Shown here: piece by piece, positions 24,001 through 30,000 of the stretch | Position numbering within the stretch: position 1 is the stretch's first letter | Layout: each line of letters opens with the position of its first letter | Source of the DNA: Microcystaceae cyanobacterium | Lineage (GTDB): Bacteria; Cyanobacteriota; Cyanobacteriia; Cyanobacteriales; Microcystaceae | DNA: 64,000 bases | NCBI GenBank assembly: GCA_041746575.1 | Contig: JBGTGT010000113.1 | Location: forward strand, 26,017-90,016 | Reading direction: 5' to 3' | Made by a program: the position numbers

Positions 24001-27000
24001 AGCACTAGGGTGCGCATGTTCTGCAATTCCGCCTTGACCCAAAATCACCCTTTTAACATCGTCAACATCACTGACGCAAGTACAAATAAGGGCAGTATCC
24101 TCCTTAATAGCTTCAGCAATAGAAGGGGCGAGATTGACGCCATTTTCGGCGGCTTGTTGTACCAGTGGACGGTTTGAGGTACGATTCCAAGCTGAAACGG
24201 GGTAACCTGCTTTAACGAGGTTTTGCGCCATAGGACTCCCCATTACGCCTAATCCGATAAAAGCAACATTTTTCATGCTGATTTCTCCCTTTAAATTCAT
24301 CATTTATCAAGATAACAGGGAAAGATGCTATGAAGTCCAGACTTATTAAATAACTAGCAATAAATCAATAAATTGATGCCATGTTAAAGATTCATATCCT
24401 GTTTTATGCTTTAAAAACTTAATTTCTTGAGGGAATAAAGGAGGTTCTCCTACGCTCTGCAAAACCCGATTCATTTCTGCTGAATCGATTAACCCGTCTT
24501 CATTATCATCAATAGGAATAAAATAAGTCACCAATTCATTATAGTTAGTGGTTAAGCGTTGGTGTCGTAAGATTAATTCTCCAAATTCTTCAAAGTCAAT
24601 TTTCCCACTATTATCAAGATCAATACTGTTAAATAAGTCGTTAATTTCAGTATCTAGCAGCGTGTCATGGGCAAGTCTTAAGTAGGTTTTTAATTCTGAT
24701 AGTGAAATTTTTTCATTGCGATCACTATCAATAGCATTAAAAATATATCGGAGGTCTCCTTTAAGTTCAGCACTCGCTTTTTGAAAGAGCAAAAAAGTTG
24801 TTTTTTCTACTATCGCTTCTTGAAGTTGATAGCGAAAACTGACAATAATCTCTTTGGCAATTTGATAACGTTTATAATGTTCTTCAGGGCAAGTAATTGT
24901 ATAAAGTGCAACAGGAACTAGAGAAGGAATCGAATGTTTTACAATGAAAAAAGCACCCATCGTTGTTATCGTAAATGCTAAAGCTAATGGCGGTAACCCA
25001 AGGGGAGCAAAAACCAGAAGTAATTCCCAATGTACCCACGCACAAACGAAAGAGGCTAACAGTGCAATGCCAATACTGCGAGGTAGCGGCGCATAAAAAA
25101 TTCCTCCCAAGGCAATCGCTGTCAAAACTGAGTTCAATTCCCATAATCCTAGATAGACAGATTGTAAGTCAATACCCAGAGCGATCGCTACTATAGCACT
25201 TATCAAAGCCCCCATTAATCCCATTCCTGCACTAATAGGAGAACAGATAAAAACCCCCGTTAGAATTAATAAACTCGAAATCAGGTTTAGACTAAACAAG
25301 ATACTGCCAAAGCTTCTGGGAAAAGAGAATAATAATTGTAAGCCATCTAGCGAAGTAATCGGCGGGCTTATTGGGGGACTTCCTAACTCAAATAATGGCT
25401 GAGGAATATATAATATTGCGCCATAAAAAAGAAGCGTTATTAAATGAAATGGAATCCCTAAAATCGAAATTTTAAAATAGGTTGTAATCCAAACTCTCAA
25501 AGTATTCGCTAAAATAGTGGTTAATATCGCTAAAATAATAACGGCAAATGCCCATAGAGGACTACCGTTTCCATTGCCCCACAAGCTAAATGTTCCGACG
25601 GCTAATCCCCCTAAAGTTCCATTAAAGCCCCAAACGCCATTCCGAATAGCGTCTATATTGACTTTTAGGAAAATAGCGGTTATTGTTGATGCGATCGCTC
25701 CTAATAATCCGCAGAGTCCAACCCAAGGAGAGTGAATAAAAGTTGCCACTAAAAATATTAATCCAGTCAAGGGATTATTGCAAAAAATGACCTGACCTAT
25801 GCCGCGTAATGTAGCATTAATTCCGTCGAAAAAAGAGGATGGAACTAACTGCTCATTTAGCCATTGCATTGTACCTGTAATCGGCAGAAAGCGACGAGTT
25901 GAACTTTGAGCAGGAGCATCCAAAATTTTAGCCAGTAGCGCTTGCAAGGATAAAGATTGATGATGGGGGTTTTCTGTCGAATTTGATTCACTCATTTTAA
26001 AATTAGAAATTGAGAATTAATTTAGTTTAGTGTATTATGAAAAGCTTGACTGAGTGCAGGTAATATGTTATGAAACAAGACCAAAGATTATATGGCAAGA
26101 CAATGACTACTTTACCGTTATACCTCCCTAGACCTAGAGAAGCGGAAGGCACTTATTTAAGAATTGTGTCTATTAATGATGTTTACGAAATTAAAAACTA
26201 TCCTTATATTGAAACTGTAATTCAAGGACTGAAGCAAACAGCAGAAGATGCAGTGGTCATTGCTTCTATGAGTGGGGATTTTCTCTCTCCTTGCCTGCTA
26301 ACATCTTTGGATGGTGGGAAATCCATGTTGGATGTTCTTAATGTTGTCAATATCGATTATATTTGCTTTGGCAATCACGAATTTGATATCAATTTAGATG
26401 TCCTGCACGAACGGTTTAAGACCTATCGAGGAAAATGTCTAAACGGCAATATTCCTAACTTATCTATCGTTGATATAACAGGTAATCCTCTGCCCAAATA
26501 CGATCTTGTAAAAATAAAAAAACATCGAGTCGCCTTCGCCGGATTTTGTACCAACAATACTGATATTTTTCGACCGGGAACCAATTTAACAATTCTGCCA
26601 ATTTTTGAGGCTTTAAAACAAGTTTGGACTGAGTGTAAAAATGAAGCAACTATGTTAATTCCACTGACCCATCAAACCATTGCTGAAGATCGGGCATTAG
26701 CAATTCAAATTGCAGAAGATGACGAACTTCGAGGCCATATTCCGATTATTCTGGGTGGCCACGAACATGAAGTTTATATTGAAGAAATCGCCCAAAACTT
26801 TATTGTCAAAGCGGGCTCTGATGCTAAGAATGTTGTAGTGGCAGATGTGTGGTGGACAGCAGAGGATAAAGTACAAAGGGCGGTTCATTTATTACCAGCA
26901 AGTCACTTTGATGCCGATCCCCATGCTCAAATATTCGTCGAAAAAACGCAAAACTTTTTGGGTTCGTTAATAGATGTAGAGATTTTTCAAGTCAAAGAAA

Positions 27001-30000
27001 CTATGTCTTCTAAGAGAACACGCTTCCAGCCAGAAAAAGTTGCCTCAACCCTCTGTTCTTATATTAAAAAAAGTTTACAAAATATAAATATCGTTATATT
27101 GCAAGGAGGATGTGTCCGAGGCAATCGTGACTATCAAAAAGATTCATCATTTACCTATGGCGATTTGTTGGAAGAATTACCTTTTGATACGCAAATTGCC
27201 GTGATTAAAGTCCCCGGAAAAGTCTTGCAGGATGCCATCTCTTTAACACGAAGTACACCTGAGCAAGAAGCTCCCAACTTTTTACACGTAGATCTTGATA
27301 CCATTATTGAAGACTATCCCCGTTTAAAAATTGTCAGTATTAACCACGCACCTTTTGACCCTGAAAAGATATACAATGTTGCGATTTATCAATTTTTGCT
27401 GACAGGTTTAAACGAGATTAAGCCTCTGCTAGATTATGTCAATACCCAAGGCAGTATTCCCTCTTTAGAGCAGTGTATTCCGGGGAAAAACTTAATTCTA
27501 GAAGCTTGTATGAAAGATGCTTGGCGAACCCTCGTTAATTTTGAGGAATGGGATAGCAATGGAGATGGAAATATTTCTAAATCCGAACTCGAACAAGCTG
27601 TTAAAAAAGCCTTTGCCTTTCTAGATCAAAACCAAGATGGACACATTTCACCCACAGAGCTGCAAACTGCAATTATCGAAAAAACAGGGAATCGAGATCA
27701 TGGCTTAATTAATATGATGTTTGAGATGCTTGATGCCGATAACGATGGTATGGTGTCAATGGAAGAATTAGCATCTTTAGCGATATAAACCGTGTGCCTG
27801 TTCAAAACACTCACTTGTGAGAACAAGGAAGCAACGAGATTTTTTAATGTTAGGAAACGAATTGTTTAAAGAGTTGTAAGAACTTTTGAGTATCAACATC
27901 AAAACAGGCATCAACATTAGGGGGGTTTGCCAATTCATCACGCCGATTGCGTAAATCTGCTAAAGATAGCCCTTTGGTAAAACGGCCTTCCGTTTCCACT
28001 ACCATATAAAGGGGTTCTGTTTTTACTAAGCTTGGATCGAGCACAACTGCTATCGCTAAAGGATCATGTAAATAACAGCCATAAAATCCCTCATTATCCC
28101 GATAAAATGCCATATAAATTTCTGTACAATCAGCAATAAACTGAGTGATTTTCGATGGAGAATTCCGTAAATTTTCCTCCACAACTTTACGATGTAAAGG
28201 TGCTTTTATCGCAACATCTAAACCCACCAACGTTAATGGAATACCCGATTCCATTACCAATTGTGCGGCATGGGGATCAACAAAAAAATTAAATTCGGCA
28301 GCAGCTGAAATATTGCCCGGAACATTTACGGCTCCTCCCATAATAATAATACGCCCAATTTTTTTCAGGACTTCGGCATCTTTTTGCAGCGCAGTGGCAA
28401 TATTTGTGAGGGGACCTAAAGCAACAATTGTTAAGTTTTTACCGTATTCCTGTGCCGCATTGAGAAGGATATCAATAGCACTTTCAGGAGAAAGTTTTAA
28501 GGCTAATTCAGGATAACGAGGAGAGCCATTTTTTTCTTGAAAACGGTGTAATTCTCCCAAACCATCCGCACCGTGAATTCCTGCCGCATCAAAGGGAGGA
28601 TTAACTAATGGTTTTTTACAGCCTTTTGCCACCGTTGGCATTTTATTAGGAGCGACAACACTAACCACACGTAAGACATTTTGAGCCGCTTGCTCAACAT
28701 TAATATTACCCGCCAAAACGGTGATCGCTTTCAGATCAATTTGTGGTGAATTTAAGGCCATAATCAAGGCTAAAGCATCATCTACTCCGCCATCAGTGTC
28801 AATAATTATAGGGATCGAGGGATTGGGTAAACTCGCCATAGTACTCAAAATTTCCTAAAATCTGCTGTATCTGCTTTAATAGAAATATTAATAATTTGAA
28901 GTTTACCATTCAATGGATAGCTAACTCGCCAGCGTGCAATTTTAGGCAGAGTGCTCACCAATTTGTCGTTGGACTCAATCAACTGCCATCGATTCGAGAA
29001 TAGTCCTTAAATCTTGACATTCACACCCGTATTCCCTTAGAGCCATGGAGTACCCCAGAAAAAGCCAGAGAATTACTGGCTCAAGAACGGTAACATGACC
29101 ACCAAACCCCTGAAAAAATGGTTAATCGGGTGGTCAAAGAAGAGCAATCGCAACAACAAGAACTTAATAAAAAAGCACGGAAATTACTAACCCAAGATCG
29201 TCAACACAAACAAAATCTTGACGAAAATATGCTAAGTCGTGCTGAATCCGAACTTCATTAACCAGAATCTCTCACCATTGATTCAGGAAATATTAAAGCA
29301 ATATGGCTATTTTCTTCGATCTTTTGCTTTTCTGCCTTTGAAACTTCTCCTTACAATCAGCAAAAAATCCTCCTAACGTTACGCTCGATCAACCAAAGAT
29401 GCTACGATTGACCAGAGAGAAAGAAACGTGATAGAAAAGGATAGACGCTTCATGAAGGAGTTTGAGAAGTCCATCTCTTTTGACGGGAGAGATATTCGGC
29501 TAAAGATCGGAGCATTTGCCCCCCAAGCCGGGGGAAGCGTTCTGATTCAGTCTGGAGACACCGCAGTTTTAGTAACTGCAACCCGTGCAACCGCCAGAGA
29601 AGGCATTGATTTTTTGCCCCTAACGGCAGATTATGAAGAACGTCTGTATGCAGCAGGACGTATTCCAGGTGGATTCTTACGTAGAGAAGGCAGACCGCCC
29701 GAAAGAGCCGTTTTAATCAGTCGTTTAATTGATCGCCCCCTCCGTCCCCTTTTTCCCCAATGGTTACGGGATGATCTTCAAGTAGTAGCGACAACTTTAT
29801 CCATGGATGAAGAAGTCCCCCCAGATGTCTTAGCGGTAACGGGGGCATCTGTAGCGGTTTTGTTGGCAAAAATCCCCTTTTATGGGCCGATGGCTGCTGT
29901 CAGAGTGGGATTAGTCGGGGATGATTTCATTATTAACCCCACTTACCGAGAAATTAACATTGGCGATCTCGATTTAGTGGTGGCCGGCAGTCCCAATGGG

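Follow-up and report, generated by a model that had tools for sequence, protein, structure and literature searches.

What does a urea transporter (UT) family channel carry once its selectivity filter has changed and it lies beside genes for nucleotide breakdown? Members of this family are regarded as urea-selective, and their two filter threonines as near-invariant. The window analysed here (the whole 64,000-nucleotide stretch of DNA) encodes a UT channel with a calmodulin-like tail in which both threonines are replaced. The survey's finding was a Ca2+-controlled urea channel paired with a nucleotidase. The ORF coordinates it gave for these two genes were correct; the module it outlined is real but stopped too early, having overlooked a nucleoside hydrolase gene at 27850-28848. 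The features are listed below.

24346..25995, minus strand: UT-family channel with C-terminal calmodulin-like tail and G-type filter, 549 aa (Pfam, PDB, model)
24949..25821, minus strand: UT domain, residues 59-349 (PF03253, 221.9 bits; TIGR03441, 159.6 bits)
25456..25458, minus strand: Gly180, at the first filter Thr site (bovine UT-B T172, human UT-A2 T176; alignment count)
24982..24984, minus strand: Ala338, at the second filter Thr site (bovine UT-B T334, human UT-A2 T338; alignment)
25303..25305, minus strand: Ser231, where the Q-T-T-Q relay has its outer Gln (also in G026 and P0002)
25135..25140, minus strand: Glu286-Leu287 in place of the conserved Gly-Tyr/Phe (window copy only)
24349..24768, minus strand: calmodulin-like tail, residues ~410-549, EF loops at 423, 459 and 496, the fourth degenerate (Pfam, PDB)
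25996..26102, no strand: short divergent intergenic region between channel and nucleotidase, common to both genes
26070..27788, plus strand: cytoplasmic 5'-nucleotidase-family phosphoesterase, 572 aa, three C-terminal EF loops (Pfam; likely start 26103)
27850..28848, minus strand: inosine-uridine-type nucleoside hydrolase (PF01156, 314.9 bits; likely ATG 28839)

The channel belongs to the UT/SLC14 family. Its UT domain lies far above the Pfam cut-off of 25 bits, and its predicted structure (pLDDT 85.9, pTM 0.83) matched human UT-B with Z 48 (8blp, 48.1) and Desulfovibrio dvUT with Z 43.6, at rmsd 2.2-2.8 Å. With human UT-A2 and UT-B, bovine UT-B and dvUT it shares the fold, two pore helices and Phe/Leu pairs, as well as the cytoplasmic C-terminal T-x-P-E loop and the C1 helix; family members are described as homotrimers with both termini in the cytoplasm (PMC11589576). 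The score for the bacterial Yut equivalog TIGR03441 fell below its cut-off (274.6 bits). The PDB scores noted previously were reproduced, with vertebrate UTs (E 1.5e-33 to 1.5e-30) ahead of dvUT (1.9e-28), but the top "mammalian" match, 8xdg, is from zebrafish. A mammal-like character is weak when drawn from pairwise scores alone (119 vs 103 bits); for a soil UT taken for comparison the values were 218 bits for dvUT vs about 140 bits. Likewise, the T-x-P-E motif is shared with mammalian UTs as claimed but is not exclusive to them, being present in soil bacterial UTs. Closeness to eukaryote-side UTs was nevertheless supported by a FastTree of 155 rows, which placed the UT proteins with EF-hands (UT-EF) in a clade among protist and animal UTs (support 97). 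Since this clade also has myxobacterial and Neptunomonas members, we claim no direction of transfer.

EF-hand families matched the channel at residues 414-475 (Pfam), the tail matched calmodulin with E 7e-17 (PDB search), and the N-lobe of the predicted model superimposed on calmodulin and troponin lobes at rmsd 1.2-1.6 Å. Paired loops with ligands at positions 1, 3, 5 and 12 class the tail as calmodulin-like, in agreement with the survey; across homologs this pattern occurs in 74/77 for loop 1, 77/77 for loop 2 and 74/76 for loop 3. Thus loops 1-3 keep their ligands, but the description of the loops as canonical does not extend to loop 1, where Glu replaces the usual Gly, or to the degenerate loop 4. 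The close family comprises 79 of 96 homologs (query included), and the 78 with EF-hand Pfams agree with the count of about 78 given earlier. The fusion cannot be presented as new: stramenopile and bacterial proteins of the same architecture are already published, together with the proposal of Ca2+ regulation (PMC12998343, Cagliani 2026). The bacterial example, A0A261KJD6, is filed under Bacillati, which includes Cyanobacteriota, and the main text of that paper has no mention of cyanobacteri-, arginase, nucleosid- or threonine. Eukaryote-type UT-EF representatives are mostly Thr/Thr, unlike the window channel.

The urea-conducting Q-T-T-Q relay of human UT-A2 (Q67, T176, T338, Q231) aligns with Q68, G180, A338 and S231 of the window channel, which has lost three of its four members. 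Of 121 family representatives, 113 have threonine at site 1 and 107 at site 2, which makes it the norm; branches elsewhere among the UTs (M23 fusions) lack the threonines too. Mutations Q67A, T176A, Q231A and T338A are reported to impair human UT-A2 (PMC11589576), and Thr-to-Ala or Thr-to-Val changes to impair or abolish UT urea flux (PMC11589576, PMC12171576). As counterparts of the hydrophobic pairs L127/L291 and F179/F341 and the aromatic pair Y123/F287, the channel keeps L128, L291, F183, F341 and F124, with F287 changed to Leu. Ser231 is common to the window channel, G026 and P0002; Glu286 and Leu287 are absent from every other close homolog.

Filter residues separate cyanobacterial UT-EF proteins into two types. 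The T-type keeps both threonines, while the G-type, to which the window copy belongs, has Gly at site 1 and Ala, Ser or Gly at site 2. We compared filter and neighbours at 62 loci (21 G-type, 41 T-type). A calmodulin-arginase adjoins 33/41 T-type channels and none of the 21 G-type; a nucleoside hydrolase or 5'-nucleotidase adjoins 15/21 G-type channels and nucleoside enzymes none of the 41 T-type. In further genomes, all six channels adjoining nucleotidase plus hydrolase were G-type and all five adjoining arginase were T-type, and G679 has one channel of each type, each beside its own kind of partner. An identical longest-contig size was shared with a nucleotidase match by 13/37 G-type and 1/40 T-type copies. 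The 13 shared sizes that had linked channel and nucleotidase were thereby recovered, one more (3104 bp, a length that could not hold both genes) must be chance, and the link itself is borne out by locus contexts. G-type partners are non-orthologous and rearranged, from two nucleotidase families (22% identical) and two hydrolase families (about 30%), and others are an MTA/SAH-nucleosidase-like gene, a deoxyribosyltransferase-like gene and guanine deaminase.

T-type proteins have the same length and tail as the G-type; unlike the window channel, they keep Thr/Thr and lie co-oriented directly behind an EF-hand arginase, which scored 203 bits against TIGR01229 (cut-off 227.6) and whose best PDB matches are arginases. 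An EF-hand ureohydrolase beside the channel in other cyanobacteria, as the survey proposed, is thus real and of arginase type, but the channel there is not the same one. No EF-arginase, and hence no arginase-UT operon, was found in the window genome, where the filter is Gly/Ala. The reading of all UT-EF proteins as one urea channel was rejected, since those linked to arginase keep the threonines and those linked to nucleotidase do not. Ca2+-controlled urea production and flux is a reasonable conjecture for the T-type and poorly supported at the window locus, where the filter threonines are lost. The G-type forms one clade (support 88) with the T-type as sister, and P0053, with a Gly/Ser filter, lies inside the T clade. 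The match of filter to neighbour yielded one independent pair on well-supported branches (tree excluding P0053, P0084, P0089 and L087). A statistical correlation was rejected, as the trees need 2-3 changes and hold only 1-2 independent pairs.

The nucleotidase exceeds the cut-offs for Metallophos (PF00149, 29.6 bits) and 5_nucleotid_C (PF02872, 49.9 bits) and carries EF-hands; from its likely start it is 561 aa long, the same as its homologs. It keeps Asp, Asp, Asn-His, His and His motifs, which we take to be metal ligands, with one His changed to Tyr. This two-domain build with dimetal ligands assigns it to the UshA/CD73 family, with which it shares most ligands. Unlike UshA/CD73, it lacks a signal peptide, carries Tyr where the second metal-ligand His is expected and has three EF loops, and it scores far below all NCBIfam cut-offs. 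The N-terminus is not hydrophobic, in line with the cytoplasmic, EF-hand-terminated enzyme described before, and its next relatives are, as also described, algal: EF-hand members from Symbiodinium ('mggB'), Chrysochromulina and Emiliania, at 34-42% identity. The mggB label makes a sugar-phosphate substrate possible. It is distinct from the secreted algal nucleotidase of PMC3237563. The hydrolase, above its Pfam cut-off and below the RihA, RihC and UriH equivalog cut-offs, keeps the Asp-rich N-terminal motif and His residues of those enzymes (presumably Ca2+/ribose-binding and catalytic, respectively), and by these features is an inosine-uridine-type nucleoside hydrolase.

Taken together, these results suggest a model, to which we assign a probability of roughly 45%, in which a Ca2+-regulated channel has been re-tuned so that it lets a freed nucleobase out. 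The three genes would form an acquired, Ca2+-responsive nucleotide-breakdown unit: the EF-hand 5'-nucleotidase would strip phosphate from cytoplasmic nucleotides and the hydrolase would cleave the nucleoside to base and ribose. Loss of both filter threonines would leave a wider planar, Phe-lined slot with a weaker urea hydrogen-bond relay, through which a flat base (purine, pyrimidine or nicotinamide) could cross the membrane, probably outward, the cell keeping phosphate and shedding excess base. The calmodulin-like tail, which hangs from the C1 helix on the cytoplasmic side, below the mouth of the pore, probably gates it with Ca2+, and the sister T-type may serve the same purpose for urea produced by calmodulin-arginase. 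The model draws on the lost relay, on G-type channels lying beside nucleoside enzymes and never arginase, and on UrtA and urease, which already cover urea in the window genome. It is weakened because the filter/neighbour match reflects only 1-2 independent evolutionary events, because both enzymes are also seen in the channel's absence (close hydrolases without a nearby UT in 5/12 genomes, EF-nucleotidases without UT in 3/10), because 6/21 G-type loci have neither hydrolase nor nucleotidase within 4.5 kb and several G-type copies are broken, and because the known mutants described in the sources above lose urea flux with no gain of a larger substrate. Glu286/Leu287 and the threonine loss in M23 fusions also count against it. 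An NCS2 permease, xanthine dehydrogenase and phosphoribosyltransferases are encoded in the window genome, which would allow bases to be recycled or broken down as far as urea. No ribokinase of the canonical kind exceeded the cut-off there (best 93 vs 299.65 bits), making ribose a possible waste.

The channel could instead still conduct urea (or ammonia or water), with the nucleoside enzymes feeding purine catabolism to urea/ammonia and the pore merely less selective. The UT fold is intact in the predicted structure, Q68, V69, F71, L128, F183, L291 and F341 are kept, xanthine dehydrogenase-family genes occur in the window genome and in 4/5 G-type genomes tested, guanine deaminase and biuret hydrolase lie near L004, and NH3 and water are reported to pass UTs (PMC12171576). 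Set against the relay losses, the mutant phenotypes, the missing arginase beside G-type copies and the UrtA and urease already present, this makes a urea channel unlikely.

Decay of the G-type pore into a non-conducting Ca2+-sensing scaffold, or into a passenger of a mobile EF-hand gene island, is somewhat less probable still. Broken copies (L001, G188, G252, G651), enzymes that persist without the channel, a window lineage that differs from the family's consensus in 16-18 of the 141 conserved columns (median 4), and EF-hand NOX-like and globin genes flanking both types would fit it. However, dN/dS is 0.24 for the channel domain (0.10-0.24 over all three genes, vs G026), the pore helices and a common set of substitutions are preserved across the three deep subclades into which the 37 G-type proteins fall, and partner identity follows filter type rather than island membership. 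Passage of ribose or whole nucleoside would draw on the same neighbourhood and on the missing ribokinase; a Phe/Leu-lined slot stripped of polar groups should favour a flat ring over a puckered polyol, and three PfkB kinases are present, so we consider it improbable. A stress or anti-phage device draining nucleotide pools on Ca2+ influx and venting bases, and not recovering phosphate, is the most doubtful: the unit is patchily distributed (a DNA search of 20 relatives did not find it), has lower GC (0.38-0.39 vs about 0.41-0.44 upstream) and bears Ca2+ sensors on two of its three proteins, but no defence system was noticed among 59 neighbours (scanned against Pfam, not PADLOC) and the sister module runs on arginase, a metabolic enzyme.

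If nucleobase release is correct, the G-type and its arginase-linked sister would be paired calmodulin-controlled 'make and release' modules and would supply a molecular route for nucleobase exudation by cyanobacteria. Prochlorococcus is reported to exude adenine and guanine, and more under P limitation (10.1101/2024.02.09.579562). More tentatively, G-type proteins may be the first UT channels with a substrate beyond urea size, Ca2+-gated nucleobase channels that arose through deletion of two Thr side chains and that vent bases from a Ca2+-switched nucleotidase and hydrolase. Thr-less UTs, or a link between UT and nucleoside hydrolase, appeared in none of the matches listed, which covered literature other than subscription journals. 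Here a natural subfamily drops both threonines and swaps its genomic partner, arginase for nucleoside-cleaving enzymes; as close sisters set apart by a few pore sites, the two types provide a ready-made test of UT filter selectivity, and the locus would be a concrete case of calmodulin-type control over bacterial nitrogen and nucleotide metabolism.

Simple regular expressions found no NtcA-like or Pho-like pattern in 25996..26102. Four DNA runs mapped to the locus, of which X1 may be the source itself, showed no variant letters in the three genes where covered. Of 400 phylum genomes, 16 gave a channel match, a count that takes in fragments and one weak match lacking EF-hands; of 400 order genomes, 22 did.

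The survey's finding had placed a urea channel with an EF-hand tail beside an EF-hand nucleotidase. The domains it described were confirmed in both proteins, and a third gene, which it had overlooked, lies next after the nucleotidase and encodes a nucleoside hydrolase.

24346-25995, minus strand: UT-family channel with EF-hand tail, 549 aa (PF03253 at residues 59-349, 221.9 bits; EF-hands from residue 414)
26070-27788, divergent to the channel: 5'-nucleotidase-family protein, 572 aa (Metallophos, 5_nucleotid_C and three EF loops)
27850-28848: inosine-uridine-type nucleoside hydrolase (314.9 bits)

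The three genes have a GC content of 0.38-0.39 and dN/dS values of 0.10-0.24 against the compared genome G026; a DNA search found them in none of 20 relatives, including two same-genus genomes (92% and 77% complete). By sequence inspection the nucleotidase has no hydrophobic leader, and the catalytic motifs are intact in both enzyme families. A structure model of the channel (74 sequences; pLDDT 85.9, pTM 0.83) matched vertebrate UTs with a Z of about 48, compared to 43.6 for the Desulfovibrio transporter dvUT, and its tail matched calmodulin lobes. Among homologs the EF ligand pattern is kept in loop 1 (74/77), loop 2 (77/77) and loop 3 (74/76), while loop 4 of the tail is degenerate.

In human UT-A2, urea is described as passing along Q231-T338-T176-Q67, with alanine mutants of each impairing flux (PMC11589576), and Thr-to-Val UT mutants are described as attenuating urea, water and NH3 flux (PMC12171576). 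Because Gln68, Gly180, Ala338 and Ser231 of the window channel stand at the corresponding Q-T-T-Q positions, three of the four relay residues are lost; counted along the bovine UT-B alignment, Gly180 corresponds to T172 (site 1) and Ala338 to T334 (site 2). Its Glu286 and Leu287 were found in 0/77 homologs tallied. Across 121 wider-family representatives with both sites aligned, clustered at 50% identity such that proteins of the window's type are under-represented, 113 carry threonine at site 1, 107 at site 2, and 8 at neither. The window protein is a UT-family member by fold but lacks most residues of the urea filter. UT fusions to M23 peptidases (P0081-P0096; loci L049, L119, L125) likewise have neither the Gln nor the Thr residues of the filter, which suggests another putative non-urea branch.

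The 77 close homologs divide into 40 with threonine at both sites (T-type) and 37 with glycine at site 1 and alanine, serine or glycine at site 2 (G-type, including the window channel). Among 62 loci from genomes and metagenomes, a set containing near-duplicates and short contigs, the EF-hand ureohydrolase that the survey had linked to the channel lies within 4.5 kb of 33/41 T-type channels but 0/21 G-type channels. Conversely, a nucleoside hydrolase or nucleotidase lies within this distance of 15/21 G-type channels (neither at the other 6) and 0/41 T-type channels. This ureohydrolase scores 203 bits with TIGR01229, marginally below the cut-off, against 64 for agmatinase, and its best PDB matches are arginases; it is a calmodulin-arginase fusion. 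At three loci, in filamentous, unicellular and picocyanobacterial genomes, it lies directly upstream of the T-type channel with arginase signature motifs retained.

L002:6421-7956: calmodulin-arginase fusion
L003:5899-7407: calmodulin-arginase fusion
L044:6424-7908: calmodulin-arginase fusion

In a second sample, 400 genomes of the order were searched with each protein and 20 regions retrieved: all six channels adjoining nucleotidase and hydrolase were G-type, and all five adjoining arginase were T-type (one a fragment). One genome (G679) encodes both types, each with its own partner; in another (G188) a T-type channel adjoins arginase, and a second, broken copy that has serine at site 2 adjoins a hydrolase and nucleotidase. 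Same-size contigs were shared between the channel and nucleotidase match lists for 13/37 G-type proteins and 1/40 T-type proteins, the latter coincidence involving a contig too short for it to be real.

The partners of G-type channels were not inherited as a single unit; their families differ and their order and orientation vary: nucleotidases fall into two families (22% identical), as do hydrolases (about 30%), and other partners include MTA/SAH-nucleosidase-like (L062, L073), deoxyribosyltransferase-like (L051) and guanine deaminase (L004, L041) genes. Two loci (L037:12506-13438, L173) have a 310-aa protein without Pfam or NCBIfam match encoded between the hydrolase and nucleotidase genes, and a relative of it adjoins a hydrolase in a third.

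The match between filter and partner is a subfamily split rather than many independent events. Three changes were needed on one tree and two on another, from which four rows were left out, among them P0053, a Gly/Ser-filter protein within the T clade and possibly an independent switch. Well-supported branches hold only one independent filter/partner pair, and in a broad FastTree the G-type proteins group as a single clade (support 88) whose sister is the filamentous T-type. The enzymes can do without the channel: it adjoins hydrolases close to the window's in only 7/12 genomes, EF-nucleotidases in 7/10 and EF-arginases in 7/10 examined (11 had strong matches). At L145 and L146 (G533, G654) an EF-nucleotidase is followed by hydrolase fragments with the channel absent; decay there proceeds from the hydrolase/channel side.

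Of the survey's urea-channel reading, the UT fold and EF-hand tail stand, but most urea-filter residues are lost and the partners are nucleoside enzymes. We favour, at a probability of about 45%, a model in which the G-type channel passes a nucleobase. In the cytoplasm, the nucleotidase would convert nucleotide to nucleoside and phosphate, the hydrolase would release base and ribose, and the G-type slot, widened yet still Phe-lined, would pass the flat base. Ca2+ would probably gate the channel through the calmodulin-like tail, which comes after the C1 helix and an intracellular loop, both described as lining the cytoplasmic mouth of UT-A2 (PMC11589576). Flux through a channel could run in either direction. 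Outward movement is preferred here because the sister T-type offers a parallel in arginase and urea, and because Prochlorococcus is described as exuding adenine and guanine, more when P-limited (10.1101/2024.02.09.579562).

Conduction of urea or ammonia is unlikely, though the first of the alternatives. In its favour, the source genome encodes an NCS2 permease as well as xanthine dehydrogenase and phosphoribosyltransferases; against it stand the lost relay residues. This genome has one UT, two ureohydrolases (both without EF-hands), and urease and UrtA, so urea uptake and use are already covered; urease was present in 5/5 T-type genomes tested and therefore does not discriminate between types. 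The gene for a second NCS2 nucleobase permease is interrupted and lies in two frames that overlap (source contig C40:4092-5416). Somewhat less probable is a non-conducting or decaying channel, consistent with several broken G-type copies and with the window lineage being the family's most divergent, differing at 16-18 of 141 conserved columns (median 4). Passage of ribose or nucleoside is more doubtful still, even with no ribokinase over cut-off in the source genome, and a defence purpose is improbable.

UT proteins with EF-hands are described in protists and bacteria, with Ca2+ regulation proposed (PMC12998343); the main text of that article does not mention cyanobacteri-, arginase, nucleosid- or threonine. 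No Thr-less UT subfamily or link between UT and nucleoside hydrolase was found in the open-access literature. The fusion is thus already published, and the re-tuned filter and nucleoside-enzyme partners appear new. In the ESM atlas the UT-EF cluster is 63% eukaryotic, diatoms being commonest, and Rhodelphis encodes two such proteins. By FastTree the cyanobacterial clade groups with UTs of protists and animals and is separate from the dvUT-like proteins of soil bacteria. As myxobacterial and other bacterial members also fall in it, and the tree method is quick, we claim no direction of transfer. The survey's algal next relatives of the nucleotidase were borne out (34-42% identity); related myxobacterial clusters occur in the ESM atlas.

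Three further genes recur near both channel types (L062, L073, L135 and L139), which suggests a larger Ca2+-sensor island: one is NADPH-oxidase-like with EF-hands, one encodes a globin-pentapeptide protein, and one is glutamine amidotransferase-like (465 aa). One further window ORF, without NCBIfam match, presumably resembles glutamine synthetase inactivating factors.

29040-29261, plus strand: 47-aa ORF with an in-frame stop codon before it, in a stretch conserved in relatives

Elsewhere the source genome has a calmodulin-like ORF that overlaps with a gene of 568 aa (C110:16997-19296), a 180-aa multi-EF protein (C46:46658-47200) and a transaldolase-like protein with EF-hands (C85:25387-26565).
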